A stretch of 64,000 bases of DNA. It comes from a virus. The stretch lies in the IMG/VR virus record IMGVR_UViG_641228504_000001; one strand, 5' to 3'. The notes below the pieces were generated by a model. It saw nothing but the letters and a program-made list of their open reading frames with translations. It had not been told where the DNA came from and made no database searches. Positions 1 to 45,934 of this stretch are shown here, piece after piece (within the stretch, counting starts at the first letter, position 1; every line of letters starts with the position of its first letter). The position numbers and the translations under genes are program-made.

Positions 1-425
1 ATGGCCCGCGGGCCTCGAGGTTCGCCGTCCTCGAGTAACTCCACGACCATGCCGTCGGATACGACAAGGCCGAGCAGCTGCGCCAGATCCGCCCCGGACC
101 GTGCGGCCTGCAGGGTCCACCCGGAGGGCAACCCTTCCTGATCTTCAGCGGTGGCTAGACCCATAATCGTCGTGCCGGCAAGCTCCTTGATCGTCACGGA
201 CGTAGCACCGTCGGCGAGGCGGTTCGGGGCAAGCGTGGTGACGAGGCTACCGAGGCGCACCTCGGTGAAACCCCACGAGGTGTGGCCGCGGGAGACAGGC
301 CGTTTAAGGGTGGCGTCTTCGAGGCGTCCGAGCAGGGTGAGGAACCGGTCAAGCACCGCGAGCGCGCGCCGCGCATCTGCCGATCCCTCCGGACCCGGCA
401 GCGTGACCCGCAGTTCCGTGCTCAT
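1..425 (-). CDS. Hypothetical protein, truncated at window edge (MSTELRVTLPGPEGSADARR...)
   Basis: ATG at 425; I translated it manually and it stays open to position 3. Absent from the ORF track because it has no stop in the window. Confidence 0.55.
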   Translation of the reverse strand, partial: MSTELRVTLPGPEGSADARRALAVLDRFLTLLGRLEDATLKRPVSRGHTSWGFTEVRLGSLVTTLAPNRLADGATSVTIKELAGTTIMGLATAEDQEGLPSGWTLQAARSGADLAQLLGLVVSDGMVVELLEDGEPRGPRA

Positions 426-520
426 ACCACCCACCATGTCACAGTCGTCCGACCCGGGGTACCGGCATAACGGCCTACTGTGCCCCGAGGTCACGCGCAG
501 CTCGGAGCGGAAAAACGACA

Positions 521-550
521 GCCCCGCCTGGCCTCACGGCCGGGCGGGGC
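521..550. terminator. Intrinsic terminator hairpin
   Basis: GCCCCGCCTGGCC-TCAC-GGCCGGGCGGGGC after the small-ORF operon; homolog at 9533-9568. Confidence 0.7.
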
Positions 551-608
551 GCTTCGTCGTGTCTGGGGTCAGCGAAGCACAACGCCCCACATGGACCAAC
601 GGCCGGAC

Positions 609-827
609 TCAGGCCCGACCCCGCCGCCGCGGTCGACGTCGACCCGGCCCACACCCCGGCTCCTGACACCCGCAGTACCCACCCGCAAGCCGTAGTAGCT
701 CCTGGTCCCCGGCGCACTGGTGCGTCTTCACCACGATCCCGGGGGCGCAACCCAGGCAGCGCAGCGCCGGATCGACGGCCGGTCCTGGGGGCGGCGCCGG
801 CGGGCTGTCGCCGGTCGCTCCGGTCAC
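609..827 (-). CDS. Small Cys-rich protein (CLGC..HQC..CGC..C), 72 aa
   Basis: GTG overlaps upstream TGA (GTGA); homolog of 9276-9515. Confidence 0.5.
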   Translation of the reverse strand: MTGATGDSPPAPPPGPAVDPALRCLGCAPGIVVKTHQCAGDQELLRLAGGYCGCQEPGCGPGRRRPRRRGRA

Positions 828-943
828 CAGTGACCTTCGTTCAGCCGGTCCGGATCCGGCGGAGGGTTGGGCGGACCATCCTTCCGGATCCGTTGGGGTA
901 GCGGTGGTGGTGGCGGATTGCAACGCCAGGACCGGACACGCAT
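824..943 (-). CDS. Pro-rich microprotein, 39 aa (MRVRSWRCNPPPPPLPQRIRK...HW)
   Basis: AGGGGA RBS 9 nt upstream; GTGA coupling to next ORF; homolog 9142-9279 differs by synonymous changes and an in-frame indel. Confidence 0.5.
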   Translation of the reverse strand: MRVRSWRCNPPPPPLPQRIRKDGPPNPPPDPDRLNEGHW

Positions 944-996
944 GACAGGACATCCCCTTCCAGTTATCGGACGAGTGAGGGTCGTGGCAGTCGGGC

Positions 997-1227
997 TTAC
1001 TGCCGACCCAGGACGTGCTCAGGTGGCGCCCAATCGCCCTGACCCACCGAGGTCAGGTAGTCGTAGGCGTAGCCGGTGGGCCTGCAGGGCCACTCGGATC
1101 CGCACATCGGGCATCGGTCCACACGTGGCCAGTGTTCGACGATGATCCTGCGGGCGGACCGGATCATCCGGTTGCGTAGCTGCGCTGGCGACAGGCCAAT
1201 CGGAGTAGGCCGGACGTGGGCGGCCAT
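997..1227 (-). CDS. Small protein with CPxC..WPC putative Zn-binding motif, 76 aa
   Basis: Conserved with 8864-9097; start overlaps upstream stop. Confidence 0.65.
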   Translation of the reverse strand: MAAHVRPTPIGLSPAQLRNRMIRSARRIIVEHWPRVDRCPMCGSEWPCRPTGYAYDYLTSVGQGDWAPPEHVLGRQ

Positions 1228-1409
1228 CACCGGGAGCAGGCCCGCTGCCGGGCCAACCGGGTCATCAACGGCCGCGTATCCAGGATCACCGTCGGCTGGT
1301 CGCGCAGCGGCCGGTAGGCACCGGCCCGCCCGGCGTACACGGTGGCGGGACCGGTGGCGTCCAGCCGCGCGGAACGACGGCGTCGGCGTTGGCGGAACAG
1401 CCGGAACAT
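1227..1409 (-). CDS. Arg-rich microprotein, 60 aa (MFRLFRQRRRRR...)
   Basis: GGAGG RBS; near-identical homolog at 8688-8867. Confidence 0.6.
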   Translation of the reverse strand: MFRLFRQRRRRRSARLDATGPATVYAGRAGAYRPLRDQPTVILDTRPLMTRLARQRACSR

Positions 1410-1559
1410 GCGCTGCGCACCTCCTACGAGTCGGAGTGCCGCCCGGCCAGGCATCGGGGGAAGCCAGCCAGGCGACACACACGCAACGTAGGTGCGGCGA
1501 AGGCGCACAGTAGCCACGAAGTGTGGTGGTACCCCGCGGTGTGGTACCCGCTTGTCAGA

Positions 1560-2768
1560 TCAGGCGACCCCGACCTGATCGGCCAGACTCCGAAGCTCTG
1601 GCCGGGTCGTCGGAGTCTCCCGAGCCAGAAGCTCTCGCAGCAACGCCCGCATAGTCAGGCTTAGCCGGGAATCCTCGGGTGACTCCTGGTGTGCGCGGCT
1701 CAACATGAGCGAGGCGGCCACGTCGTCGCGTTGCGTGGCGTACCCACGCGCCAGGTGCAGCAGGTGCGAGTGCCGGCGCTCGATGCTCGGCGATCCAGTC
1801 ACGTCGACCCGCTCGCCCAACTTGAGCGCCTCACCATGCCGCGACAGCTCCAGCGCCACCGCAGCCCGGTGAATCCCGACGTTGATCGGGCCGAAAAACA
1901 GCCAGTGGTGAGACGTTTCCCCGACGACGGCAGCGAGCTTTTCCGCCTCGCTCAGGACCACTGTGGTGTCCCGGTCGTTGTGCAGCCGAGCCGCCTGCAC
2001 AGACAGCAGCAGATTGAGCCCGCCGAGGACAGACAGCCGCACCGGGTCCTGGTCATCGATTGCGCGTAGCTCAGCGATAGCGGACCGGCATAGCTCAGCG
2101 GACTCCTCCGCGTGGCCGCGCATCGACAGCGCCTGGCCGAGGTTCCACGCCCCGGCGCCGCGGTAGATCGGATCGTCGGCGTCACGTGCAGCGGCCAGCG
2201 CCCGATCGGCGGCCACGAGCGCCACGTCATGTGCGCCGATGCGCTTGGCGTAGGAGCGCACCAGGAGATACAGGTCGGCGGAGATCCGCAGCGCGTCACG
2301 CCGTGAGTCGCCGTCGGTGCTGGCGACGGCAGCGGTAACGGCCTGGACGAGGCCGGGCAGGGCAGGGCCGGTGTAGGTGTAACGCTGCCGCGACTGGTGC
2401 CATGTCGTCCACGCCAACCGCACCGCGGCGCGTAGCTCGGGCAGCGGCATCAGCTCGACCTCTGGCGGGCCGTAGGCGTGGATGGCGGCGCGGAGCGGTC
2501 CCACTAACTCGTGGTCCACCGGGTCATCCGGGAGATGACCGACGGGGAGTCCGGTGATGCGGTACAGGTCGCGTACCCGCAGGATACGAGCGATGTCGAC
2601 CCAGTCGGAGAGGGTATTAACGGATCGTTCCCCTGACTCCCACTTACGCCAGGCGGAAACGGTGACGCCCTTGAGTTGGGCACATACTTCTTGTGTCAGG
2701 CCGGCTCGGCGGCGGTAGAGCTTGATGCGTTGGCCGGGGGTCATCCCCGGCTCGATGACGGGGTCCAT
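1560..2768 (-). CDS. XRE-family HTH regulator with helical TPR-like C-terminal region, 402 aa
   Basis: N-terminal HTH (GLTQE..A..GV..S.W.KWESGER); C-terminal F.P.NV..H...ALEL..R.....AR family pattern; GGAGAAGG RBS. Confidence 0.85.
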   Translation of the reverse strand: MDPVIEPGMTPGQRIKLYRRRAGLTQEVCAQLKGVTVSAWRKWESGERSVNTLSDWVDIARILRVRDLYRITGLPVGHLPDDPVDHELVGPLRAAIHAYGPPEVELMPLPELRAAVRLAWTTWHQSRQRYTYTGPALPGLVQAVTAAVASTDGDSRRDALRISADLYLLVRSYAKRIGAHDVALVAADRALAAARDADDPIYRGAGAWNLGQALSMRGHAEESAELCRSAIAELRAIDDQDPVRLSVLGGLNLLLSVQAARLHNDRDTTVVLSEAEKLAAVVGETSHHWLFFGPINVGIHRAAVALELSRHGEALKLGERVDVTGSPSIERRHSHLLHLARGYATQRDDVAASLMLSRAHQESPEDSRLSLTMRALLRELLARETPTTRPELRSLADQVGVA

Positions 2769-3021
2769 AGCCTTCTCCAGGTAGAGGACTGGGCGGCGGG
2801 CCGCCAGCCTCTACCCCGGCGGGCCGCCACAGTCGACGGTACTCCCCGCCCACCAGGTCACGCCGTCAGTAACAGACCGTGTTGTATTGTGGATACCTCG
2901 CGCGCAATAACACGGCCCCGCAATTCTGGCTAGCCTTCAAACCGGTCATTGCTCCGGCCGGAGATACGTGTCGGACATTTAACAAGACACAGAAGACGCG
3001 AATCCCATTCGTGGATATTGC

Positions 3022-3049
3022 TTGTCGATTATCAATCTGGTACTAAACT
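3022..3049 (+). promoter_or_regulatory. Putative housekeeping-sigma promoter TTGTCG-N16-TAAACT
   Basis: In the AT-rich intergenic block; identical in inverted orientation in the prophage homolog. Confidence 0.4.
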
Positions 3050-3222
3050 TGATCCGGCCAAGTGATCATCCGGTGACGGGCCGTCACAACCCAACGTGAC
3101 CCGTTGCGCACCATCACCCCACCCCCGCCCACGACACGCGGCGAGAAGTCTTCCCATTTCATTCGTACACGTGTTCTACTCGCACGCTCCGTTAGGCACC
3201 CGAGGAGGTCATCCACTCCGCC

Positions 3223-3831
3223 ATGCGCAGCCAGCCCACCCGCCACCCATCCCCACCCCTACGCGCCGCGATCTACGGACCCACGCGGCAGATCGGACGC
3301 TGGCAGCCAACCTGCACCGCCTGGTGCACAGACCGCGGCTACGACCTGACGTCCATCGTCGACGAAGACGCCGCCGCCACCCGCTGGAGCGACCTGCTCG
3401 TCATGATGGCCGACGGCGACGTCGACGTGGTCGTGGTGGCCACCCTTGCGGACCTGCCGCCAAAAAGGATGGCCAGAGTCGAGACCATCAACCGGGGGCA
3501 GCCAGCGCGACGGCCAGGACTACGCGCCGTGGTCTACGGCCCGCCCTGGGACGTCAAACGGTGGGGGCGCCGGGGCATGAAGTGGTGTCAGCAGGCGGAG
3601 CTGGACGTTCGCCGCCTCATCGTCGAGACGCCCGCCGCGAGCGAGTGGCCCGGCGTGGTCGAGGGAATGGCCGACGGAACGGTCGACGTGGTGGTGATGG
3701 GCAGTTGGGGTCATCTACCCCCGCATCGCCTGCCACGAATCGAGGTAGCAGGCACCACACCGGCAGGGCTACTGCAACCCCGCCTGGCCCGCTGGTACCC
3801 GATTACAGGTCACTTGCGTCCGTCCGGATAG
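3223..3831 (+). CDS. Protein with two tandem degenerate resolvase-like (serine recombinase fold) domains, 202 aa
   Basis: Internal duplication RAAIYGP...MADGDVDVVVV / RAVVYGP...MADGTVDVVVM; YxRVS catalytic motif absent. Confidence 0.7.
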   Translation: MRSQPTRHPSPPLRAAIYGPTRQIGRWQPTCTAWCTDRGYDLTSIVDEDAAATRWSDLLVMMADGDVDVVVVATLADLPPKRMARVETINRGQPARRPGLRAVVYGPPWDVKRWGRRGMKWCQQAELDVRRLIVETPAASEWPGVVEGMADGTVDVVVMGSWGHLPPHRLPRIEVAGTTPAGLLQPRLARWYPITGHLRPSG

Positions 3832-4098
3832 GACCCTCGGTGGTCGGAGGATGCGGACTATCGGTCAAAGACCCGCTTGACTGGTGCAGGCCTTTTGATC
3901 TAGTAGCACTTTCGGTCACCTCGAACAATACCCAACCGCCAGTTTTACGCACGGTCACTAGAAATGATCGCCGAGTCGGAGTCTGATCAGAGGCCCACCC
4001 CGAAACGCAGAGGCTGGTGGGGATCGAATGGGGAGGGAATAGCTGTGGAGGACCGCAAGCGCGTCACTCACAGTAAGAGCAATGTAGCGCACACCTGT

Positions 4099-4482
4099 GT
4101 GACGGTCGCAGCCATCGCCGGACTCATCCTCTGCGCGAGGTCCCTCCGCCGCACCCTCCAGACCGTCGAGGCTGAAGTCTCAGCCATGCGAACGGACTTT
4201 ACCGACGTGCTGACCATCGCCGATGCTGACGCCGAGCTGCGCCAGCGACGCAACGGCACGTACGTCGGCGCCGACGTCACTCCACTCGTACCAGCGGTTA
4301 GAAGCGGTCCGCCTGGGAGACCCGCCGAGCGGCCCGCTGCGCCCGCTCAACCTGCGCCGACCGGCCATACCGGCGAGGCATCTCCGCCGAGGACCAACCG
4401 AACAGTGCCATCGCGTCGCCCTCGGAACCGCCGGCGTCAGCCCACAGGTGCGCGGCGAGGTGCCGCAGCTTATGAGGGTTGA
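4099..4482 (+). CDS. Hypothetical protein with hydrophobic N-terminus; 3' part overlaps recombinase antisense
   Basis: GTG after the conserved leader; true end uncertain. Confidence 0.35.
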   Translation: MTVAAIAGLILCARSLRRTLQTVEAEVSAMRTDFTDVLTIADADAELRQRRNGTYVGADVTPLVPAVRSGPPGRPAERPAAPAQPAPTGHTGEASPPRTNRTVPSRRPRNRRRQPTGARRGAAAYEG

Positions 4483-5188
4483 TCTTCGGGATCTTCGCCT
4501 CCTCGCAACGGCGTTCCAGCATCTGATACGCACCGGAAGACGTGAGCGCCCCTCCCCGCTCGGCCAGCCACAGCGCCTCAAGTCTGCCCGCATCTCGGTG
4601 CTTGGACCTCACGCGTAGGTAACGATCGATTGCCTGCCCCGTCTTCGCACCGAAGGGCACAGAACGAATCTTGTCGCCCTTGCCATGAAGGGTGACAAGG
4701 TCGTGGCGCATGTCCAGGGCGTCGAGGGTGATACCCACCATCTCTGAGACCCTGGGGGACCCCGCCTCACACCACAACCGGATCATCGCTGTATCGCGAC
4801 GCTCGGTAAAGCCTTTGCCGCCGCATGCCTTAAGCAGCAGCGCCATATGGTCAGCGGGGACAATGGGGATGGGTTTGCTGGTGACAGCGGGCTCGGCGAT
4901 CCGGGCCATCGGGTTACTGTCGACGATCTCCTCCACCTCGCACCACCGATAGAACGCTCGTAGGTTGCGAAACTTCTTGTGCACCGTGGCGCTGGAGTTG
5001 CCGATCTCCTGAGCATCGATTAGGAACTCCTCCACGTCGACGCGAGTAACCTCAGCCAGGTCACGCCCGGAGCAGAACCCGGCGAGTTGGCGCAGGGTGG
5101 TGACGTAGCTGTCGACGGTCTCGGGAGAGGTACGGCGGGCGCGGTGGTACCGCTCATAGGAGGCGATGTGCGTCTCGTTGGCATCCAT
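4298..5188 (-). CDS. Tyrosine recombinase/integrase (XerC-like), 296 aa
   Basis: Catalytic R (PRVSEM), K (GKGDK), HKLRH, GW (Trp for His), Y (RRYG); N-terminal core-binding domain. Confidence 0.92.
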   Translation of the reverse strand: MDANETHIASYERYHRARRTSPETVDSYVTTLRQLAGFCSGRDLAEVTRVDVEEFLIDAQEIGNSSATVHKKFRNLRAFYRWCEVEEIVDSNPMARIAEPAVTSKPIPIVPADHMALLLKACGGKGFTERRDTAMIRLWCEAGSPRVSEMVGITLDALDMRHDLVTLHGKGDKIRSVPFGAKTGQAIDRYLRVRSKHRDAGRLEALWLAERGGALTSSGAYQMLERRCEEAKIPKINPHKLRHLAAHLWADAGGSEGDAMALFGWSSAEMPRRYGRSAQVERAQRAARRVSQADRF

Positions 5189-5297
5189 GGCGGGGCCTCC
5201 CTGGTCGCTACAGCGCTAAGTCAGGGAGGAAAGAATACTCTCCTCCACCATCGCTGTGGCGACCCCCGCCGCCCGATTCGATCTCTATTTGTGCTGG

Positions 5298-5876: not shown

Positions 5877-6176
5877 GAATCCCCATGTGTGTGCAACAGT
5901 GGTCTTACTGCGAGTGACGCGCTTACGCTTCACCACAGCTATTCCCTCCCCATTCGGTCCCCCCACCAGCCTCTGCGTTTCGGGGTGGGCCTCTGATCAG
6001 ACTCCGACTCGGCGATCATTTCTAGTGACCGTGCGTAAAACTGCCGGTTGGGATGTCGCCGCGCATGACCGAAAGTGCTACTAGAACAACGGGCTCGCAC
6101 GGCACAACCCCTGTTTGAGCGAAAGCGGCATCCCATAGCCGGCTATCTGTCCTGACAGGACGGCAGCACATCGCCA

Positions 6177-6767
6177 CTACTGGGCCGGGTACCAGTCCAC
6201 CGCACGGGGCTGCAGCAGTCCCGGCAGCGTTGCGCCTGCCACCTCTACTCGTGGGAGACGGTGCGGGGGTAGGTGGCCCCAGCTGCCCATCACCACCAGC
6301 TGGACCTCATCGGCGGCCATCATTCGGACCACGCCTGGCCACTCGTGCGCGTCGGGTGTCTCGACCACGAGGTCGCGCACGGTCAGGCCGGCGCGGTCTG
6401 CCCATGTCAGGCCCCGACGTCTCCACAGCTCCACATCCCAGGGTGGGACGTAGACGAGCGTGCGCAGCCCGCGTCCATGGCGCACTGGCTGCCGCCGGCC
6501 GATGGTCTCGACCCGCGCCATGCGGTCGGCTGGTAGGTCAGCCAGGCTGGCTACCACGACGATGTCGATGTCGCCGTCGGCCATCATGACGAGCAGATCA
6601 CCCCACCGGGTGGCGTCGGGGGTCTCGTCGATGACGGACACCAGTTCGTAGCCGCATTCCGTGGACCAGGCGGTGCAGGTTGGCTGCCAGCGTCCGATCT
6701 GCCGCGTGGGTCCGTAGATCGCGGCGCGTAGGGGTGGGGATGGGTGGCGGGTGGGCTGGCTTCGCAT
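6177..6767 (-). CDS. Tandem degenerate resolvase-like domain protein, 196 aa
   Basis: Homolog of 3223-3831. Confidence 0.7.
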   Translation of the reverse strand: MRSQPTRHPSPPLRAAIYGPTRQIGRWQPTCTAWSTECGYELVSVIDETPDATRWGDLLVMMADGDIDIVVVASLADLPADRMARVETIGRRQPVRHGRGLRTLVYVPPWDVELWRRRGLTWADRAGLTVRDLVVETPDAHEWPGVVRMMAADEVQLVVMGSWGHLPPHRLPRVEVAGATLPGLLQPRAVDWYPAQ

Positions 6768-7349
6768 GGCGGAGTGGATGACCTCCTCGGATGCCTGGCG
6801 GGAGCGTGCGAGTAGAACACATGTACGAATGAAATGGGAAGAGTTCTCCCGGTGTGTCGTGGGCGGGGGTGGGGTGGTGGTGCGCAACGGGTCACGTTGG
6901 GTTGTGACGGCCCGTCACCGGATGATCACTTGGCCGGATCAAGTTTAGTACCAGATTGATAATCGACAAGCAATATCCACGAATGGGATTCGCATGATCC
7001 GTGTCTTGTTAAATGTCCGACACGTATCTCCGGTCGACGGCGTGACCGATTTAGAGGCTAGCCAGAATTGCTGCCTCATGTTATTGCGCGCGAAGTATCC
7101 ACAATACAACACGGTCTGTTACTGACGGCGTGACGTGGTGGGCGGGGAGTACCGTCGACTGTGGCGGCCTGCCGGGGGTCGATGCCGGCGGCAGCGCCTG
7201 GATCGGGGCGACAAAGTAGGGGCCGGATGTGCGGTCCGACCCCTTGCGCGCCCCGCCACGGTAGCAGGAGACATCGACGCGACGTACTGTGCCAATGGAC
7301 GCCGGTTTCGTGCGGGAACCGGCACTTCACCCTCGTGCGGGAGGGCACC

Positions 7350-8543
7350 ATGAGTGACTACATCGGATTGCGCGTCGCTCGGTGGCGCGACATCAGCGGC
7401 ATGACCCAACACGACCTGGCCAGCGCTGTCGGTGTGACTCCGGCCTACATCAGCATGCTGGAGAACGGGCGCCGGCCGGTGGCCAAACGGTCACTGCTTA
7501 TCGCGCTGGCCAGCGCGCTGCAGGTCAGCATCACCGATCTGACCGGTCAACCCGCGACGCCCCGCAGCTCCGACGACCTCGCGATCTACGGTGCCGTCCC
7601 TGCCCTACGCGGCGCGCTCGACGACGAACCCGAGGCCGGCCCGCTGCCGTCGCTGGCCGACGTCGCCTCCCGCACGGACGCGGTCATGTCCGCGCGGATG
7701 GCCTGCGACTACCAGAGCCTGGCCCGGCTCCTGCCCCCGCTGGTCGCTGATACCCGCCAGCTCGCCAACTCCGGAGACGAGCACGCGTTGGCGCTGTTCG
7801 TGCGGACCGCGGTCACCGCAGCATTGGCGATCAAGCCGTTTGGGTACGTCGATCTGAGCGCGCGGTACGCAGAGCGCGCCGACGTCGCCGCCGATCGCCT
7901 CGGTAGGCAAATCGAGTCGGCGGCGGCGGCGTTCGCGCTCGCACAGACCGCGCTGGCATCCGGCACCACCGGTGGGCGCCGCCGGTCGCTGATGACCGCG
8001 GTCGCCGCTGCCGAACGTCTCGGTGACGACGGTGACGACGCCGCCCTCACGTGGTACGGCATGCTGCACCTGCACGCCGCCCTGTCGGCGGCCTCACTCG
8101 ACATCGGCGACTCCGACAGTCATCTCGCCGAGGCGGGTGCCGCGGCTCGTCGCGCGGGATCGGATCCGTGGCGGATGGAGTTCACCTCCACAAACGTCGA
8201 CATCTGGCGTATCGGGGTGGCGGTTGAGAACGGCGAGCCCGAGCGGGCTCCCGAGTACGCCCGCCAGGTCGACCGGTCCCGTATCCGCACCGCGAACCGC
8301 CGCGCCCGGATGCACATCGACACGGGGCGCGGCTGGTACGCCGCCGGCGACCAGGACCGCGCCATCCTGTCGTGGCTGGAGGCTGACGAGGCGTCACCGG
8401 CGGAGCTGCGGTCCCGGCCGAGTGTGCGGGAGTTGGTCGGACAGATGATCCGTGACTCTCGTCGACGCGGCTCCGATGAGCTGCGGGACCTGGCGACACG
8501 GGTTGGTGTCGACCCGCTCGATCCCGACCACGACCAGACTTAA
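7350..8543 (+). CDS. XRE-family HTH regulator with TPR-like C-terminal region, 397 aa
   Basis: GMTQHDLA..VGVT..YISMLENGRR HTH; GGAGGG RBS before ATG 7350. Confidence 0.85.
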   Translation: MSDYIGLRVARWRDISGMTQHDLASAVGVTPAYISMLENGRRPVAKRSLLIALASALQVSITDLTGQPATPRSSDDLAIYGAVPALRGALDDEPEAGPLPSLADVASRTDAVMSARMACDYQSLARLLPPLVADTRQLANSGDEHALALFVRTAVTAALAIKPFGYVDLSARYAERADVAADRLGRQIESAAAAFALAQTALASGTTGGRRRSLMTAVAAAERLGDDGDDAALTWYGMLHLHAALSAASLDIGDSDSHLAEAGAAARRAGSDPWRMEFTSTNVDIWRIGVAVENGEPERAPEYARQVDRSRIRTANRRARMHIDTGRGWYAAGDQDRAILSWLEADEASPAELRSRPSVRELVGQMIRDSRRRGSDELRDLATRVGVDPLDPDHDQT

Positions 8544-8687
8544 CTAGCAGTTACTCTCCCGATACCGCCGTCGGTCGATAGTCCGTGTGACGGCGGTTTC
8601 CGGTCTTCCCTCCCCGTAACTGGGTAGGGGCGGTCGCAGCCAGAGAGCCGGCCGTCTCGCCACCATCGAGGGTGAGGGAGTACGCGC

Positions 8688-8867
8688 ATGTTCCGGCTGT
8701 TCCGCAAACGCCGCCGCCGTTCCGGGCGGCTGGATGCGACCGGCCCGGCCACGGTGTACGCCGGGCGGGCCGGCGCCTACCGGCCGCTACGCGATCAGCC
8801 GACGGTGATCCTTGATACGCGGCCGTTGATGACCCGGTTGGCCCGGCAGCGGGCCTGCTCCCGGTGA
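8688..8867 (+). CDS. Arg-rich microprotein, 59 aa
   Basis: GAGGGAG RBS; homolog 1227-1409; below the ORF-track cutoff. Confidence 0.6.
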   Translation: MFRLFRKRRRRSGRLDATGPATVYAGRAGAYRPLRDQPTVILDTRPLMTRLARQRACSR

Positions 8868-9097
8868 TGGCCACCCACGCCCGGCCTACCCCGATCGGCC
8901 TGTCGCCGGCGCAGCTGCGTAACCGGATGATCGTGTCGGCCCGGCGGATCATCGTCGAGCACTGGCCCCGGGTGGACCGGTGCCCGGTGTGCGGATCCAC
9001 CTGGCCGTGCACGCCCACCGGCTACGCCTACGACTACCTGGCCTCGGTGGGGCAGGGCGATTGGGCGCCACCTGAGCAGGTCCTGGGCCGGCGGTAG
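8864..9097 (+). CDS. Small CPxC..WPC putative Zn-binding protein
   Basis: GTGATG overlap with upstream stop; homolog 997-1227. Confidence 0.65.
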   Translation: MMATHARPTPIGLSPAQLRNRMIVSARRIIVEHWPRVDRCPVCGSTWPCTPTGYAYDYLASVGQGDWAPPEQVLGRR

Positions 9098-9141
9098 TCC
9101 CGGCCCTCGTTCATCCGACAACTGGAAGGGGATGGCCTGTC

Positions 9142-9279
9142 ATGCGTGTCCGGTCCTGGCGTTGCAATCCGCCGCCACCACCGCTACCCCAACGGATCCG
9201 GAAGGATCACCAGCCGACCACGACATCGAACCCGACACCGAATCCGGATCCGGACCGGCTGAACGGGGGCCACTGGTGA
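9142..9279 (+). CDS. Pro-rich microprotein, 45 aa
   Basis: RBS spacing and substitution pattern favour this frame over ATG 9132. Confidence 0.5.
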   Translation: MRVRSWRCNPPPPPLPQRIRKDHQPTTTSNPTPNPDPDRLNGGHW

Positions 9280-9515
9280 CCGGGACAACCGGCGACAGCC
9301 CGCCGGCGCCGCCCCCAGGACCGGCCGTCGATCCGGCGCTGCGCTGCCTGGGTTGCGCCCCCGGGATCGTGGTCAAGACGCACCAGTGCGCCGGGGACCA
9401 GGAACTACTACGGCCTGCCGGTGGGTACTGCGGCTGCCAGGAACCGGGGTGTGGGCCGGGTCGACGTCGGCCACAGCGGCGTCGCCGGCTGAGTCCGGCC
9501 GCTGACGAACTCTGA
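9276..9515 (+). CDS. Small Cys-rich protein, 79 aa
   Basis: GTGA overlap; homolog 609-827. Confidence 0.5.
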   Translation: MTGTTGDSPPAPPPGPAVDPALRCLGCAPGIVVKTHQCAGDQELLRPAGGYCGCQEPGCGPGRRRPQRRRRLSPAADEL

Positions 9516-9532
9516 CCGACCGCAGACACGAC

Positions 9533-9568
9533 AACGCCCCGCCCGGCCGTGAGGCCAGGCGGGGCGTT
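9533..9568. terminator. Bidirectional terminator hairpin
   Basis: 16-bp stem with one mismatch and GTGA loop, between the + operon and mini-array 1. Confidence 0.75.
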
Positions 9569-9572
9569 TGTG

Positions 9573-9645
9573 CGACCCAACCCCACATACGTGGGGAGCA
9601 TGTCGCGAAGCGACAGTGGGTCATCCCCGCCTATGCGGGGACCAA
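9573..9645 (-). CRISPR. Mini-array 1: two type I-E-like 29-nt repeats with a 15-nt spacer
   Basis: TTGGT-CCCCGC-ATAG-GCGGGG-ATGACCCA / CTGTCGCTTCGCGAC / ATGCT-CCCCAC-GTAT-GTGGGG-TTGGGTCG; 5+6+4+6+8 geometry; first repeat 19/29 identical to the E. coli I-E repeat. Confidence 0.75.
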
Positions 9646-9652
9646 TGAACGG

Positions 9653-9681
9653 AGCGTACCCCCAAGCGTCTCGGCTGTCAG
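9653..9681 (-). promoter_or_regulatory. Putative promoter of mini-array 1, CTGACA-N17-TACGCT
   Basis: Predicted TSS near 9646, at the first base of the upstream repeat. Confidence 0.6.
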
Positions 9682-9728
9682 GCCCCGCCGGGGGCGGGTC
9701 GTTGTGGCAGGTCCGCACCACAGCCGTT

Positions 9729-9769
9729 CTATAGCATGCTTGACGTGTAGCTATAGCAGGCTATAGGCT
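9729..9769 (+). promoter_or_regulatory. Promoter TTGACG-N18-TAGGCT with three CTATAG palindromic operator candidates
   Basis: CTATAG at 9729, 9751 and 9761, overlapping the -35/-10 region. Confidence 0.6.
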
Positions 9770-9797
9770 GTTGGTATCCGAGCCACAGGAGGAAGCG

Positions 9798-10202
9798 ATG
9801 ACCACCGGAACCAGCATCGACGATCTCGCCCGGACCCTCGCCGACCATCACGGCATTGACACCCACGCTGCTGCCGTCGACACGGTGCGGGTGCATGTGG
9901 ATGAGATTCGCGACGACCCGGAGCTGTGGGACACCGCGACCCGAACCCTCACTTCGGCCGGCGTCGAGGTGATCACCCGTGCAGTTGACGCGTCGTACAG
10001 TGTCGGAGCCGTCGCCACAGCGGCTGCGCAGGTGCTGGTGGAGCTGGAAGAGGTGACCAGCGAGATCGGCCGCCTGACCGCCCGCCGCGAAGTGCTGGTG
10101 CGGACGGCAATGCGGCGGCATGAGCTGCGGCGAGACGATATCGCCGCAGCCGCCGGCGTGACGCCCGCCCGGCTCTACCAGATCCGCGACGGACGCCGCT
10201 GA
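9798..10202 (+). CDS. Two-domain protein: unknown N-terminus plus C-terminal HTH, 134 aa
   Basis: AGGAGG RBS; RDDIAAAAGVTPARLYQI HTH. Confidence 0.8.
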   Translation: MTTGTSIDDLARTLADHHGIDTHAAAVDTVRVHVDEIRDDPELWDTATRTLTSAGVEVITRAVDASYSVGAVATAAAQVLVELEEVTSEIGRLTARREVLVRTAMRRHELRRDDIAAAAGVTPARLYQIRDGRR

Positions 10203-10243
10203 GCCACTCATCACGTAAACAACTACACCTTAGGGTTCAGATT

Positions 10244-10675
10244 ATGGGTGACAAGATTATGGACAACAAATTCGACATCGAAGACGCCTCCGGTCGCCTA
10301 GGTGAGCTGGTTTGGGCTGCGGGGGAAGGGACGGACATTATCCTCACTCGCGATGGTGTACCTGCCGCCCGTCTGACGGCCACCGAAACCGAATATCTAG
10401 ACGGTGACGAGTACGAGAAACTCCTCCGGGATATCCATCTGTACAGCCGCGCGATGGCCGCGTTCGCGGTGGCTGAACATCCCAGCGGATACGACTTCGC
10501 GCGGGTCATCAACGCCCTCTGGCAGCGCATCCGTTTCAAGCTAGATGAGGTTGCGGCGGTGCCCCCTGGGGAGGTTCGCGAGCCGTTCGCCGACGAGGCC
10601 CGGGGTGTCCGGGAGGTGGCCCGTGCGGACGCCGAGGCAATCGCGGCTAGGCCATCAGCGCGGTGGGCCGACTGA
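10244..10675 (+). CDS. Phd/YefM antitoxin-like domain fused to unknown C-terminal domain, 143 aa
   Basis: IEDASGRLGELVWAAGEGTDIILTRDGVPAARL matches the Phd/YefM pattern; TAGGGT -10 lies 7 nt before ATG (leaderless). Confidence 0.7.
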   Translation: MGDKIMDNKFDIEDASGRLGELVWAAGEGTDIILTRDGVPAARLTATETEYLDGDEYEKLLRDIHLYSRAMAAFAVAEHPSGYDFARVINALWQRIRFKLDEVAAVPPGEVREPFADEARGVREVARADAEAIAARPSARWAD

Positions 10676-10682
10676 ACACAGA

Positions 10683-10719
10683 GACAGCCAGACCCCCGAC
10701 ATTCGGGGGTCTGGCTGTC
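10683..10719. terminator. Perfect 17-bp bidirectional hairpin
   Basis: GACAGCCAGACCCCCGA-CAT-TCGGGGGTCTGGCTGTC. Confidence 0.85.
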
Positions 10720-10720
10720 A

Positions 10721-10808
10721 CGATTAACCCACATGCATGGAGAGGTGTCTCCTATAGGAGACGGTATCCGGCCTACGACCGTGACACCTCCACATACGTG
10801 GAGAGGTG
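10721..10808 (-). CRISPR. Mini-array 2: I-E-like 29-nt repeat, 32-nt spacer, degenerate 27-nt repeat
   Basis: CACCT-CTCCAC-GTAT-GTGGAG-GTGTCACG / GTCGTAGGCCGGATACCGTCTCCTATAGGAGA / CACCTCTCCATGCATGTGGGTTAATCG. Confidence 0.75.
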
Positions 10809-10832
10809 GTGCTTCGGCCGTGGTAGCAGTTG

Positions 10833-10851
10833 CCTGCCCCATCGGGGCAGG
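10833..10851 (-). terminator. Hairpin downstream of holin
   Basis: CCTGCCCC-ATC-GGGGCAGG. Confidence 0.5.
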
Positions 10852-10868
10852 GGCGACATGCTCCGACC

Positions 10869-11123
10869 CTACCGCCCCGACACCTCGTACTTCGGCGCGG
10901 CCGGCGTGCCGAGTAGGACGCCCAGCCGTGGCCAGCGTGCCTCGGCCACCCGGACGAGGGCGTAGTAGCCGGCCATCGCCAGCGCCATCACGCCCACGGT
11001 GAGTGCGGTGGACGAGTCGGCGTCGATGACGATGCCCGCCGTCGAGGCCAGCCAGGCGAGCAGGGCGCCGACGGCGGCGGGGACCGCGGTGCGGATCAGG
11101 CTGATCAGGTAGTCGTGGGTCAT
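10869..11123 (-). CDS. Holin, 84 aa
   Basis: Two hydrophobic segments; IRT.VP..VG..L.WL and E.RWP.LG.LLG patterns; lies in the lysis cassette. Confidence 0.75.
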   Translation of the reverse strand: MTHDYLISLIRTAVPAAVGALLAWLASTAGIVIDADSSTALTVGVMALAMAGYYALVRVAEARWPRLGVLLGTPAAPKYEVSGR

Positions 11124-38614: not shown

Positions 38615-39049
38615 GTGGCAGCATCCCCATCCCCTACACCGTCACCCGAGGTCGCGCGAGCGCGCTTCGCAGCCTTCGTCGCCCGTGCTCTGGCATCCGC
38701 AGGCGACCGCGGCATGACCAACAAAGACATCGCGAAGGCAACAGGGGTAGGACCGTCCACGTTCCACCGGTGGCGTCGCGGCGAGGGACGCGAACTACCA
38801 GAGATCGAGAAGGTAAGGGCATTTTGCGCCGGCCTCGGCATCTCCCCCGCCGGTGCGCTCGCCGCACTCGGACTCGATCCCTCTCGCGACGACCCCGAGC
38901 CCGAGCCACCGCTACCACCCGAGGTCCGACAGATCCTCCGGACGCTGGCCGACCCCAACGTCTCGGAGGCAGACAAGCTCGTACTACAGGAGATGCTCAA
39001 GATGCTTGCCGACCGCGCAGACCGCGCCGGACGAGGCAGGGCACCCTAA
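38615..39049 (+). CDS. Immunity repressor (XRE HTH), probably leaderless, 144 aa
   Basis: GMTNKDIAKATGVGPSTFHRW; TACGGT -10 lies 6 nt before GTG; coupled to integrase. Confidence 0.8.
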   Translation: MAASPSPTPSPEVARARFAAFVARALASAGDRGMTNKDIAKATGVGPSTFHRWRRGEGRELPEIEKVRAFCAGLGISPAGALAALGLDPSRDDPEPEPPLPPEVRQILRTLADPNVSEADKLVLQEMLKMLADRADRAGRGRAP

Positions 39050-40386
39050 TGCCCCGCCGCCGGTATCCCACCATTAGCAAAGGCAGTGACGGGTGGTTTC
39101 ATGCCTGGGTCACGGTGGGCACGAAGAGCAACGGGCGGCCCGATCAGCGGCACATCAAACGGGCCACGGTAGAGCAGGTAGAGACACGGATAGACGAGCT
39201 ACTAGAGCAGGCCCGCACTGCTACGGTCCCGCGCGGCGGTCGCGGACCCACCGTTAACACCTGGCTGATCAGTACCTATCTGGAGACAATCGCCCCCGGA
39301 AAGATTGATCCAACGACCGTCCAGGGCTACCGGAGTAAGGTCACAAATTACGTTGTGCCAGTTATTGGTGCCCTTCGGATGGATCGCGTAATAGCTGATA
39401 ACATCGATGCCGTTTACACAGAGATGCGGCGTCGAGGTCTCGCTGATGCCACGGTACTACAGGTCCACCGTATTCTTTCCCGCGCATGGAAAGTTGCCGC
39501 TCGGCGACGTGTTGTGCCACGAAACATCATGCTCGATGTCGACCCGCCAAGTGCAAAGCGTCAAGAGATGGAACCGCTCACGGAAGACGAGGCTAAGGCG
39601 ACGCTGGCGGCAGCCCACCGACGCCGCAACTCGGCCCGCTGGTCCGTCGGGTTCGCGGTTGGCACCCGCCAGGGTGAGGCGCTCGGCCTACGTTGGCCGC
39701 ACCTCCTCGTAGAGTGCGACGACTGCGGGGCAACGGTGAAGTTGGCGGACTGGTGGGCCGGGCAACTGGTGCAGTGCCGAGGCTGCAACTCGGTGAATGT
39801 CGGCGCCGTCGCCCGGATCTGGTGGCAGCTTCACCGGCGAGCGCACGAACACGGCTGCGCTCCTCAGGCCCCATGGCCTTGTGGTCGACGTCGTGGCGGC
39901 AACTGCCCAAACAAACGACTGGTCCTGCGATCGGGCGAGATTCACGTCGGCGGCGGACTGATTCTTAAGGAACCCAAGGGAAAGAGCAAGCGGACCATTC
40001 CGATCCCGCAGGAACTTGTCGATAGCCTCCGAGCGCACTACGAAGTGCAGAACTTGGAGCGAATGGTGGCTGAGGCTGCATACGCCTCGCATGGCTTCGT
40101 CTTCGCCGACCAGCTCGGCGGCCCGATCGACCCAGCCGAAGACTGGCGGGAGTGGAAGACCCTAATCGCGGATGCCGGCGTACGGGACGCTCGGGTGCAT
40201 GACGGCCGGCATACTGCGGCAACGCTGCTTCTCGCTCAGGGAGTCGACATCCGGGTGGTCCAGGAGCTGCTTGGGCACTCCTCGATCAAGGTCACCGAGG
40301 GATACACCCACGTCGCCTCGAAGCTGGCCCGGGACGCTACGGAGCGTATGGGAAAGCGGCTGTTCGGAACGCCAGGTACACCCTGA
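39049..40386 (+). CDS. int: Phage tyrosine integrase with Cys-rich insertions, 445 aa
   Basis: GTRQGEALGL, EPK, HDGRH, LLGH, Y; arm-binding N-terminus; TAATG overlap. Confidence 0.95.
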   Translation: MPRRRYPTISKGSDGWFHAWVTVGTKSNGRPDQRHIKRATVEQVETRIDELLEQARTATVPRGGRGPTVNTWLISTYLETIAPGKIDPTTVQGYRSKVTNYVVPVIGALRMDRVIADNIDAVYTEMRRRGLADATVLQVHRILSRAWKVAARRRVVPRNIMLDVDPPSAKRQEMEPLTEDEAKATLAAAHRRRNSARWSVGFAVGTRQGEALGLRWPHLLVECDDCGATVKLADWWAGQLVQCRGCNSVNVGAVARIWWQLHRRAHEHGCAPQAPWPCGRRRGGNCPNKRLVLRSGEIHVGGGLILKEPKGKSKRTIPIPQELVDSLRAHYEVQNLERMVAEAAYASHGFVFADQLGGPIDPAEDWREWKTLIADAGVRDARVHDGRHTAATLLLAQGVDIRVVQELLGHSSIKVTEGYTHVASKLARDATERMGKRLFGTPGTP

Positions 40387-44698: not shown

Positions 44699-44771
44699 CG
44701 ACCCAACCCCACATACGTGGGGAGCATGTCGCGAAGCGACAGTGGGTCATCCCCGCCTATGCGGGGACCAA
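44699..44771 (-). CRISPR. Mini-array 1 (copy 2)
   Basis: Copy of 9573-9645. Confidence 0.75.
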
Positions 44772-44923
44772 TGAACGGAGCGTACCCCCAAGCGTCTCGG
44801 CTGTCAGGCCCCGCCGGGGGCGGGTCGTTGTGGCAGGTCCGCACCACAGCCGTTCTATAGCATGCTTGACGTGTAGCTATAGCAGGCTATAGGCTGTTGG
44901 TATCCGAGCCACAGGAGGAAGCG

Positions 44924-45328
44924 ATGACCACCGGAACCAGCATCGACGATCTCGCCCGGACCCTCGCCGACCATCACGGCATTGACACCCACGCTGCTGC
45001 CGTCGACACGGTGCGGGTGCATGTGGATGAGATTCGCGACGACCCGGAGCTGTGGGACACCGCGACCCGAACCCTCACTTCGGCCGGCGTCGAGGTGATC
45101 ACCCGTGCAGTTGACGCGTCGTACAGTGTCGGAGCCGTCGCCACAGCGGCTGCGCAGGTGCTGGTGGAGCTGGAAGAGGTGACCAGCGAGATCGGCCGCC
45201 TGACCGCCCGCCGCGAAGTGCTGGTGCGGACGGCAATGCGGCGGCATGAGCTGCGGCGAGACGATATCGCCGCAGCCGCCGGCGTGACGCCCGCCCGGCT
45301 CTACCAGATCCGCGACGGACGCCGCTGA
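44924..45328 (+). CDS. C-terminal HTH protein (copy 2)
   Basis: Copy of 9798-10202. Confidence 0.8.
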   Translation: MTTGTSIDDLARTLADHHGIDTHAAAVDTVRVHVDEIRDDPELWDTATRTLTSAGVEVITRAVDASYSVGAVATAAAQVLVELEEVTSEIGRLTARREVLVRTAMRRHELRRDDIAAAAGVTPARLYQIRDGRR

Positions 45329-45369
45329 GCCACTCATCACGTAAACAACTACACCTTAGGGTTCAGATT

Positions 45370-45801
45370 ATGGGTGACAAGATTATGGACAACAAATTCG
45401 ACATCGAAGACGCCTCCGGTCGCCTAGGTGAGCTGGTTTGGGCTGCGGGGGAAGGGACGGACATTATCCTCACTCGCGATGGTGTACCTGCCGCCCGTCT
45501 GACGGCCACCGAAACCGAATATCTAGACGGTGACGAGTACGAGAAACTCCTCCGGGATATCCATCTGTACAGCCGCGCGATGGCCGCGTTCGCGGTGGCT
45601 GAACATCCCAGCGGATACGACTTCGCGCGGGTCATCAACGCCCTCTGGCAGCGCATCCGTTTCAAGCTAGATGAGGTTGCGGCGGTGCCCCCTGGGGAGG
45701 TTCGCGAGCCGTTCGCCGACGAGGCCCGGGGTGTCCGGGAGGTGGCCCGTGCGGACGCCGAGGCAATCGCGGCTAGGCCATCAGCGCGGTGGGCCGACTG
45801 A
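45370..45801 (+). CDS. Phd/YefM-domain fusion (copy 2)
   Basis: Copy of 10244-10675. Confidence 0.7.
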   Translation: MGDKIMDNKFDIEDASGRLGELVWAAGEGTDIILTRDGVPAARLTATETEYLDGDEYEKLLRDIHLYSRAMAAFAVAEHPSGYDFARVINALWQRIRFKLDEVAAVPPGEVREPFADEARGVREVARADAEAIAARPSARWAD

Positions 45802-45808
45802 ACACAGA

Positions 45809-45845
45809 GACAGCCAGACCCCCGACATTCGGGGGTCTGGCTGTC
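45809..45845. terminator. 17-bp hairpin (copy 2)
   Basis: Copy of 10683-10719. Confidence 0.85.
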
Positions 45846-45846
45846 A

Positions 45847-45934
45847 CGATTAACCCACATGCATGGAGAGGTGTCTCCTATAGGAGACGGTATCCGGCCT
45901 ACGACCGTGACACCTCCACATACGTGGAGAGGTG
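45847..45934 (-). CRISPR. Mini-array 2 (copy 2)
   Basis: Copy of 10721-10808. Confidence 0.75.

Follow-up and report, generated by a model that had tools for sequence, protein, structure and literature searches.

A small islet within a prophage carries two cas-less mini-arrays derived from CRISPR, whose transcripts probably imitate the pre-crRNA of a host type I-E system and would act as an anti-CRISPR RNA of the Racr/Cracr kind. The islet is present twice in the window (the whole stretch of 64,000 nucleotides analyzed here) because positions 5298-28874 are 100% identical to 40424-64000, at an offset of 35126. The host appears to be of Salinispora arenicola type, with its strain identity taken from sister proviruses and from mock-community and isolate runs with coded names, and the strongest support for CRISPR mimicry comes from these sisters rather than from the window. 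Counter-defense of this kind has already been described (2023-2026), such that the islet would represent a new actinobacterial type I-E member rather than a new principle, while providing a clear actinobacterial type I-E example of phage RNA mimicry of CRISPR.

Organization of the islet

Each prophage copy contains four units organized as two repeat-spacer-repeat cassettes, each ended by a terminator, and flanking an HTH gene and a weakly Phd-like gene (Table 1).

Table 1. Coordinates of the islet features in the window
Feature	Coordinates	Strand	Description
Terminator hairpin, array 2	9533-9568	-	Stem of 16 bp; marks the left edge of the islet
U4, array 2	9573-9601	-	ATGCT CCCCAC GTAT GTGGGG TTGGGTCG; class CCCCAC/GTGGGG
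Guide-like spacer, array 2	9602-9616	-	15 nt, CTGTCGCTTCGCGAC, hairpin
U3, array 2	9617-9645	-	29-nt repeat; TTGGT CCCCGC ATAG GCGGGG ATGACCCA
Candidate array 2 promoter	9653-9681	-	CTGACA, 17 nt, TACGCT (TANNNT-type -10); read directly from the sequence
Three CTATAG palindromes	9729-9734, 9751-9756, 9761-9766		Located 5' of the HTH gene; candidate operators
HTH gene	9798-10202	+	134 aa, C-terminal HTH; phrog_686 'HTH DNA binding protein', E=4.9e-6
Phd-like gene	10244-10675	+	143 aa, weak N-terminal Phd/YefM-like domain
Terminator hairpin, array 1	10683-10719	-	17-bp stem, T-rich tail
U2, array 1	10719-10747	-	Degenerate terminal repeat; CTCCAT GCAT GTGGGT TAATCGTG
Guide-like spacer, array 1	10748-10779	-	32 nt; 3' half is the palindrome GTCTCC-TATA-GGAGAC
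U1, array 1	10780-10808	-	29-nt type I-E-like repeat; CACCT CTCCAC GTAT GTGGAG GTGTCACG (stem CTCCAC/GTGGAG, loop GTAT, 8-nt handle)
Second islet copy	44699-45934	-	Identical; islet coordinates + 35126; second tandem prophage copy

All four of the minus-strand units described in a sequence-only reading of this DNA are present, and the second copy of the islet that it reported is exact. U1, U3, and U4 have precisely the type I-E repeat geometry ascribed to them (lead of 5 nt, stem of 6 bp, loop of 4 nt, and 3' handle of 8 nt), type I-E repeats being units of ~29 nt with GC-rich stems of 6-7 bp and a 61-nt period with 32-nt spacers; U2, previously given as 27 nt, is read here as an aligned but degenerate 29-nt unit in which 5/6 stem pairs are formed, wobbles included. 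The start-to-start distance between units is 61 nt in array 1 and 44 nt in array 2. The upstream and downstream repeats of array 2 belong to different repeat classes, and the U3 stem CCCCGC/GCGGGG (followed by handle ATGACCCA) is of the host type. Both spacers fold into the hairpins described earlier (z = -6.0 and -6.6), and a terminator hairpin follows each cassette, as had been claimed, with that of array 1 also lying directly 3' of the convergent Phd-like gene. The core pattern CYCCRC-N4-GYGGRG has six matches in the window compared with 0.70 expected, and 0/100 shuffles reach six. An Rfam gathering search of the window matched no family.

The prophage encodes capsid, portal, D5-type primase, integrase, lysin, and holin-like proteins, and no cas family was found among the ~28 ORFs scanned, in agreement with its earlier description as lacking cas genes apart from a Cas4-like recombination nuclease. 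The element to its left is homologous to it (521-1413 with 9565-8684, inverted, 85.6%), and since this homology stops at the terminator the left element does not have the islet, which bears out what was reported of the neighboring element.

The candidate array 2 promoter ends 7 nt ahead of U3 and is kept in the sister loci L001 and L003; it was not called in a consensus promoter scan of the window. TANNNT hexamers also precede the sister array, a mini-array of M. maritima, and the host CreR-like element discussed below, with comparable spacing. Array 1 has no evident promoter. In RNA-Seq assemblies of the source organism the islet is found in 3/3 runs (array 1 in 3/3, array 2 in 1/3), in contigs that give no strand, ends, or size and may reflect DNA carry-over. 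The surroundings of the M. maritima mini-array consist of ORFans and one weak spanin match.

Four S. arenicola proviruses encode the HTH protein with 85-92% identity, and no relatives were found in species-representative genomes. The CTATAG sites are kept in L001, L002, and L003, and because L002 is without array 2, they belong to the HTH promoter rather than to array 2; the HTH protein probably autoregulates through these candidate operators. The Phd-like protein has matches to PF02604 (E=9e-4, 19.3 bits with a cut-off of 29.8) and TIGR01552 (E=4.5e-4, 19.5 bits with a cut-off of 20.8), and its atlas leads are also Phd/YefM. A Phd/YefM antitoxin is recognized by a match above the curated cut-off together with an adjacent toxin, and the 10244-10675 protein has neither, there being no toxin ORF beside the gene, which is followed by the terminator. 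No relatives of this protein were found in IMG/VR. The Phd-like and HTH genes are always paired on exact-match contigs, and their position suggests a link of both proteins to the arrays.

Similarity to host type I-E repeats

The host genus Salinispora has type I-E systems, a point the sequence-only reading had proposed checking. The S. arenicola species representative has arrays of the form CTGTT-CCCCGC-N4-GCGGGG-GTGATCCC, in addition to cas-linked arrays with handle GTCTTCCC. S. tropica has one CCCCAC-class array, which is cas-less, and no cas-linked CCCCAC-class array was found in Salinispora. The core CCCCAC-GYAT-GTGGGG is a true I-E repeat core, present at >120 genome loci in many bacteria, most of which are long arrays with a 61-nt period. 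The window units have stems in common with arrays of S. arenicola (CCCCGC) and S. tropica (CCCCAC), in Salinispora strains other than the source. Sister units contain the exact host handle GTGATCCG, and the window handles of U3 and U4 agree with it at ~5/8 positions. A metagenome scan for CCCCAC-class arrays returned unrelated environmental contigs only, and a metagenomic I-E operon with repeat GTGCTCCCCGCGTACGCGGGGGTGATCCG was set aside when its assignment to Salinispora was not achieved.

All of the units are palindromic as DNA and adjoin an HTH gene and terminators, as would be expected of protein-binding sites (e.g. for the HTH protein), REP-like elements, or stacked terminators with no relation to CRISPR. 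Such an origin is extremely improbable, however, as the 29-nt geometry, the 61-nt period, and the stems are common to host I-E repeats, whose 8-nt handle is reproduced exactly in the sisters, and the core pattern has no matches in the prophage outside the islet units (window scan). Moreover, the HTH gene is present without any repeat unit in L004 and L005, and the CTATAG sites provide the conserved candidate operators. REP or terminator stacks and operator palindromes were rejected on the shared I-E geometry, period, and stems; homologs that kept nothing beyond generic hairpins had earlier been named as the outcome to be expected of such elements, but the geometry, the 61-nt spacing, and the handle are kept as well. 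An attP or packaging site was also rejected.

Sister proviruses and the host cas3-cse1 regulator

Sister proviruses are present in S. arenicola strains CNH-941, CNP-105, and CNP-193, identified through their IMG ids in Wietz 2014. Cas1 accessions for both I-E-1 and I-E-2 are given for these three strains and for CNS-205, and CNT-859 is listed with I-C only (Wietz 2014), the I-E status of the strains being taken here from the cas accession list. The sister proviruses of strains listed with two I-E systems contain 3-7 units (counts 7, 4, 5; controls 1) compared with 0 in the CNT-859 provirus, and the units co-occur with I-E hosts.

The second cassette of a four-unit sister array is homologous to array 1 of the window. 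Its unit, sister U3 (CCCCAC/GTGGGG), is orthologous to window U1, and a compensatory change in the stem separates the two. Over its first 14 nt, the array 1 guide of the sisters departs from that of the window at position 6, with the hairpin retained. The window, L001, and L003 have exactly the same 15-nt spacer in array 2, with variation in the flanking loops; in the sister versions of window U3 (array 2 of L001 and L003) the loop is GCAG, which is also that of S. arenicola array C. Stem covariation in related prophages, proposed earlier as a check, is found: in a comparison of 23 distinct units, paired cells make up 99.3%, double-sided changes occur in 3/6 pairs, and 0/500 shuffles reach the score. 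The content of the region differs among sister proviruses, and the arrays are modular, with cassettes gained, lost, and fused between close provirus relatives.

The variable content of the region, the degeneracy of one unit, and handles unlike those of the host are features that could be accounted for if the units were fragments of host arrays introduced by illegitimate recombination and now decaying without function in a variable part of the prophage. We view such inert relics as very improbable, because the same guides are kept in several proviruses, in strains from different isolation sites, the stem changes are compensated, and a promoter-like element and a strong terminator frame each cassette. 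The guide also differs from the host element described next only at three unpaired positions.

Over its full length, sister array (i) can be aligned with a degenerate mini-array that the S. arenicola I-E locus carries in its 600-nt cas3-cse1 spacer (80 nt at 76%, E=6e-14, compared with 2e-6 or worse for ordinary repeats). A 17-mer of the sister guide has a single match (<=2 mismatches) in the 5.6-Mb S. arenicola genome, and this lies inside the cas3-cse1 spacer. Over guide positions 1-18 the sister and host sequences differ only at 6, 12, and 18 (chance 1 in 816), which are the bases flipped out by Cascade, and the restriction of differences to three unpaired positions indicates selection on pairing. 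Sister arrays (i) and (ii) agree with the host CreR-like element at 15/15 paired positions, and an AAG-flanked site matched at 13/15 paired positions is situated 108 nt away within the same spacer. In the four-unit sister array, the first cassette copies the host CreR-like regulator and the second half is orthologous to array 1 of the window, which itself has no CreR-homologous cassette. The CreR-bearing spacer was not recovered from runs of the source organism, in a search that finds near-identical DNA only and is hence weak.

The CRISPR-prophage ecology of Salinispora was surveyed in 75 strains by Wietz et al. (2014), who noted self-targeting spacers against resident prophages. The guide differences at flipped-out positions and the presence of units by strain I-E status are directly usable as tests, and both comparative observations may help explain how such self-targeting spacers are tolerated.

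Guides, possible modes of action, and related elements

No counterpart or target of the window guides was found at the I-E locus of S. arenicola, in a further type of I-E operon (metagenome contigs), or in four Micromonospora I-E loci; comparisons with the S. arenicola and S. tropica genomes gave nothing above control level, the prophage itself contains no target, and there is no host counterpart of array 1 in five further small genomes of the genus. In IMG/VR an exact 20-mer of the array 1 spacer has 0 matches and the array 2 15-mer (exact words) has chance-level matches only, and INPHARED blastn gave no match with the islet or with array 1 (50,697 phage records for the latter). Two candidates were discarded, a 17-mer match at chance level in a metagenomic phage C5-methyltransferase gene and a weak 13-nt guide match in L001.

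These searches bear on whether the islet encodes working mini-CRISPR arrays for interviral conflict, in which borrowed host Cascade and Cas3 would cut rival phages (superinfection exclusion). Array 1 has the canonical 32-nt spacer and 61-nt period that this would call for, but no protospacer was found in IMG/VR (exact 15-20-mers) or INPHARED (one blastn run), the guides are conserved across proviruses and largely palindromic, and what the linked cassette of the sisters copies is a host regulator rather than a phage. A 15-nt spacer is too short for I-E interference, and that of array 2 is thus below the usable length. We consider such a role unlikely. Viral mini-arrays are already known (Medvedeva et al. 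2019, PMC6858448; Iranzo et al. 2020, PMC7099407); they resemble the islet in being cas-less repeat-spacer-repeat elements that need host Cas proteins, but have spacers that match related viruses, whereas none were found for the window guides.

In the preferred reading, mimicry of host type I-E pre-crRNA, the arrays would be transcribed into small RNAs whose repeat hairpins are bound and cut by host Cas6e. The products would load into Cascade and draw Cas proteins off the real crRNAs, in Racr-like sequestration; a guide partly matching a cas promoter would cause Cascade to repress its own operon, in Cracr-like reprogramming, with inhibition of immunity as the presumed outcome. Array 1 would provide a canonical 32-nt guide in a crRNA-like transcript, and array 2, with its own candidate promoter and 15-nt hairpin guide, is most likely a decoy giving undersized or mixed complexes. 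The core of the sequence-only reading, that the phage makes crRNA-like RNAs that decoy, hijack, or redirect I-E Cascade, is supported by the I-E hosts, the shared stems and partly shared handle, and the CreR homology of the sisters. Quite unlikely, in our estimate, is that the window cassettes are not CreR copies but a trap, in which the 5' handle of one I-E class and the 3' hairpin of another are joined by a stable hairpin guide, such that one RNA ties up Cas6e of one I-E system and Cas5/Cas7 of a second, or stalls Cascade assembly on the structured guide. If so, two co-resident I-E systems would be disabled at once with no target needed.

Cracr arrays are cas-less prophage cassettes of degenerate repeat-guide-repeat organization, multi-guide and with type I-E included, and their guides copy host CreR guides and aim at cas promoters (Liu et al., bioRxiv 10.1101/2024.10.29.618823). 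Prophage multi-guide I-E arrays are therefore already in that preprint, and the suggestion that the islet has an unusual architecture does not stand. Salinispora and Micromonospora are unnamed in the main text of the preprint. The window islet shares the cassette layout and is virus-encoded and cas-less, and the sister proviruses match fully, with a guide that copies the host CreR-like element; an array that mixes repeat variants is also in keeping with the preprint's observation of co-encoded Cracrs addressing different variants of one type. In contrast to Cracrs, the window guides are without a CreR counterpart or promoter target in the loci searched, both are hairpins and one is only 15 nt, and the cassettes are separate transcription units either side of the HTH and Phd-like genes.

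Racrs are solitary viral repeat mimics, frequently without cas genes and close to a promoter; they sequester both Cas6 and Cas7, and type I-E Racrs have been validated (Camara-Wilpert et al. 2023, PMC10651486). Both they and the islet are viral, cas-less mimics of host repeats, and array 2 with its 15-nt guide would act similarly. Racrs are solitary and guide-less, however, whereas the window units are paired with a guide between them and so are not solitary repeats, though a Racr-like action may still hold.

The CreR/CreA mini-arrays of hosts have degenerate repeats around a guide partly complementary to a promoter, and in ~20% of I-E loci the cas3-cas8 spacer is long and able to hold a mini-array (Shmakov et al. 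2023, bioRxiv 10.1101/2023.03.03.530964). The S. arenicola I-E locus has such a mini-array, and it is this that the sister phage array copies. CreR/CreA elements are host-encoded inside cas loci, whereas the window elements are phage-encoded and situated far from cas genes.

Organization of the islet within the prophage

Self-comparison of the window shows 100% identity between 5298-28874 and 40424-64000 at an offset of 35126, and it therefore contains two tandem copies of one ~35-kb prophage, with genes for capsid, portal, a D5-type primase, an antirepressor, a tyrosine-integrase, a holin-like protein and a lysin that contains a PG_binding_1 domain. The S. arenicola CNP-193 provirus in IMG/VR has precisely the length of one copy, 35,126 bp, which we assume to be coincidental, and has another array set. 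The islet has attL-side accessory genes on one side and the lysis cassette on the other, and its repetition reported in the sequence-only reading holds, with the second islet at +35126 inside the identical stretch. A different integrated element lies to the left of the prophage, and its 521-1413 segment is homologous to 9565-8684 in inverted orientation (85.6%). This homology stops at the terminator, so the left element lacks the islet, as had been claimed. It contains inverted homologs (82-86%) of two prophage accessory modules flanking the att junction (window 1-5297 and 5884-9565), with an XRE-type regulator of a different kind between them.

Reading along the minus strand, the islet runs from the holin stop codon through U1, a spacer, U2 and a terminator (array 1), two genes on the opposite strand, a promoter-like element, and then U3, a spacer, U4 and a terminator (array 2). 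The motif CYCCRC-N4-GYGGRG occurs six times in the window against 0.70 expected, a count reached by 0 of 100 shuffles, and a hairpin scan with relaxed settings yields no units of such make-up per prophage copy other than these four. Both array regions fold with z about -6 relative to shuffles, and the spacer hairpins noted earlier are present in both predicted folds.

Coordinates of features in the window and in the S. arenicola cas locus stretch (L226)
Feature	Coordinates	Strand	Remarks
First prophage copy	5298-40423		35,126 bp
Second prophage copy	40424-64000
Integrase	38770-40386		at junction of prophage copies
U1	10808-10780	minus	array 1, first unit
Array 1 spacer	between U1 and U2	minus	32 nt
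U2	10747-10719	minus	array 1, second unit
Terminator after U2	10719-10683	minus	17 bp
Phd-like gene	10244-10675	opposite to arrays
HTH gene	9798-10202	opposite to arrays	three CTATAG palindromes upstream
Promoter-like CTGACA-N17-TACGCT	9681-9653	minus	before U3
U3	9645-9617	minus	array 2, first unit
Array 2 spacer	between U3 and U4	minus	15 nt
U4	9601-9573	minus	array 2, second unit
Terminator after U4	9568-9533	minus	16 bp
RNA-Seq X7 contigs	9583-10692 and 10727-11070
RNA-Seq X8 contig	9650-11070
RNA-Seq X9 contigs	9649-10681 and 10727-11100
Host CreR-like degenerate mini-array	L226:12643-12732	opposite to cas genes	cas3-cse1 spacer
AAG-flanked 13/15 site	L226:12564-12581		cas3-cse1 spacer

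Repeat units and their host counterparts

An exact scan of species-representative genomes for TCYCCACGYATGTGGRG gives at least 120 loci; most among the matches listed are long arrays of 61-nt period (the array-bearing genomes include Lactobacillus, Thermus, Methylocaldum and Pantoea), which marks the CCCCAC stem as a true type I-E repeat core. When 26 units, comprising phage units together with repeats and pseudo-repeats of hosts, are aligned, 99.3% of cells in the 6-bp stem are paired and three stem pairs carry two-sided changes (G-C to A-U, C-G to U-A), a pairing score that shuffled or register-shifted alignments do not approach; the stem covariation sought in related prophages is thus present. 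One compensated change separates U1 (CTCCAC/GTGGAG) from its sister ortholog (CCCCAC/GTGGGG). From the genome scan and the alignment we take the units to be CRISPR-derived.

Host genomes were reached through the host-flank DNA of one of the sister proviruses, the related S. arenicola proviruses in IMG/VR. The S. arenicola species representative (5,632,046 bp, 98% identity) has three arrays of CTGTT-CCCCGC-N4-GCGGGG-GTGATCCC with loops ATAC, ACGT and GCAG, and an I-E cas locus between two inverted arrays with handle GTCTTCCC, providing the I-E cas operon looked for in the host genus. The second genome (5,183,331 bp, 86-88% identity), which is S. tropica-like and presumably S. tropica CNB-440, has a cas-less array of the CCCCAC class, GTCCT-CCCCAC-GCAC-GTGGGG-GTGCTCCG. 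This genome (G386; L152, L155) has its nine-repeat cas-less I-E-type array next to iron-transport genes, and a solitary repeat of its class lies at about 1,211,523 bp. Metagenome contigs yield a second I-E operon type with repeat GTGCT-CCCCGC-GTAC-GCGGGG-GTGATCCG, whose assignment to Salinispora was tried and not obtained. The unpublished genome G436 underlies none of the conclusions drawn here.

Stems of the phage units are common to Salinispora arrays (CCCCGC and CCCCAC classes), several sister units have exactly the handle GTGATCCG, and the array-2 unit of two sister provirus stretches (L001 and L003) has the GCAG loop of S. arenicola array C. The window handles match at only about 5/8 positions.

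Relatives of the HTH protein with 85-92% identity are found in four IMG/VR proviruses, with IMG genome ids matching S. arenicola CNH-941, CNP-105 and CNT-859 in Wietz et al. 2014 (PMC4223832, Additional file 1), and a fifth related provirus is from S. arenicola CNP-193. The DNA of the window occurs in isolate runs of a single coded organism, in several synthetic (mock-community) metagenomes and in six RNA-Seq runs of the coded organism; together with the sister proviruses, these runs indicate an S. arenicola-type strain as the window host. Type I-E is the commonest CRISPR subtype of Salinispora, and I-E-1 and I-E-2 cas1 accessions are given for CNS-205, CNH-941, CNP-105 and CNP-193, and only an I-C cas1 accession for CNT-859 (PMC4223832). 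The proviruses contain 7 units in CNH-941, 4 in CNP-105, 5 in CNP-193 and 3 in one further strain (control 1 in each), and 0 in CNT-859 (control 0), counts that appear to track the I-E listing in the expected direction in this small sample.

Guides and a host CreR-like element

Array (i) of the sister proviruses has four units and begins with a TATGGT -10-like element. Its first cassette (repeat, 34-nt guide, shortened repeat) is fused to a second (CCCCAC repeat, 32-nt guide, second CCCCAC repeat, terminator). Right after its hairpin, the shortened repeat of the first cassette passes directly into the first repeat of the second cassette (L147:316-480, L002:7195-7360), which looks like a recombination joint of two once separate mini-arrays. 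Array (ii), a second sister cassette, agrees with array (i) in the first 17 guide bases, and this 17-mer has a single match at ≤2 mismatches in the S. arenicola genome, within the 600-nt cas3-cse1 spacer. The match belongs to a degenerate mini-array in which two pseudo-repeats, one with handle GTCTTCCC and the other overlapping the cas3 stop codon, enclose a 34-nt guide. This anatomy and location are shared with those reported for the CreR-type mini-array regulators of hosts; a long cas3-cas8 spacer is present in about 20% of I-E loci (Shmakov et al. 2023, bioRxiv 10.1101/2023.03.03.530964).

Array (i) aligns with this element along its whole length, including the -10-like upstream region (80 nt, 76%, E=6e-14; ordinary repeats reach 2e-6 at best). 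Across guide positions 1-18 the two differ only at 6, 12 and 18, leaving 15/15 paired positions identical; three random differences would land on these with a chance of 1 in 816. Type I-E Cascade flips guide positions 6, 12 and 18 out of the duplex, and confinement of the differences to them therefore suggests that guide pairing has been under selection. Within the 19-kb locus, the site ranking second for this guide lies 108 nt from the first and in the same spacer, with AAG before it and 13/15 positions matching, and would overlap a candidate promoter facing cse1. Shuffled guides score 13 in ~1/8 trials, so this site counts only together with its PAM and position. As a copy of the CreR-like element, array (i) corresponds to the crRNA-like anti-CRISPR RNAs termed Cracr (Liu et al., bioRxiv 10.1101/2024.10.29.618823).

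The hairpin scan finds no CreR-copying cassette in the window. Array 1 is orthologous to the second array (i) cassette, with handle GTGTCACG common to both, and within the first 14 nt its guide differs from the sister's at position 6, the hairpin being kept. In array 2 a 15-nt hairpin connects a repeat of the CCCCGC class with one of the CCCCAC class, and in L001 and L003 this guide is identical and the repeat loops vary. A guide of 15 nt is too short for interference, which suggests that array 2 would act by sequestration. For the window guides we found no counterpart or target in two Salinispora genomes, the S. arenicola cas locus, the second I-E operon type, four Micromonospora loci or another five small genomes of the genus, and no target within the prophage, IMG/VR (exact 15-20-mers) or INPHARED (blastn). 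Sequencing runs of the source organism are not among the carriers of the CreR-bearing spacer, which fits, weakly, a strain whose I-E variants differ. The window cassettes may have been copied from regulators in such variants, or may be guide-independent decoys.

Expression, associated proteins and related mini-arrays

In each of the three RNA-Seq runs of the source organism that were compared, the islet is covered by assembled contigs, which give no strand, ends or abundance. The 9531-9648 segment (array 2 and its terminator) is absent from two of these assemblies and is on one contig in the DNA run. The two RNA-Seq assemblies lacking array 2, which are independent, each begin a contig at 9649-9650, just 3-4 nt before U3 starts at 9645. 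The contigs are compatible with transcription of the islet without proving small RNAs, and DNA carry-over is possible.

The HTH protein matches phrog_686 (E=4.9e-6), and its gene occurs without any repeat unit in two sister stretches (L004 and L005). The CTATAG sites are retained in L002, a provirus without array 2, and are read as candidate operators of the HTH gene itself. The 143-aa Phd-like protein has Phd/YefM signals, all sub-threshold, and no toxin gene is beside it. Position alone ties the two proteins to CRISPR, and an Aca-like role for either is hypothetical.

Judging by its sequence, the islet would work like viral crRNA-like anti-CRISPR RNAs (Racrs, 2023; Cracr arrays, 2024/2026), a kind already known. 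Prophage I-E arrays of two or three guides are among the Cracr arrays described, whose targets include Actinomycetota (bioRxiv 10.1101/2024.10.29.618823). The sister arrays have the sequence-level features of Cracr, whereas the guides of the window cassettes match no host guide among the loci examined; Racrs are solitary units, whereas those of the window are paired.

Micromonospora maritima JCM 17013 contains a three-unit mini-array of mixed CCCCGC and CCCCAC units (L048:2160-2390), preceded by a TATGGT element as in array (i) and followed by a terminator; its neighbors are ORFans and one weak spanin match. This genome has no Cas6e Pfam match and no long array of the mini-array's class. Streptomyces sp. 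NPDC000594 has some five I-E-like units in a row, with mixed stem classes and irregular spacing (L065:7230-7440, minus), which may represent a further mini-array or an array in decay.
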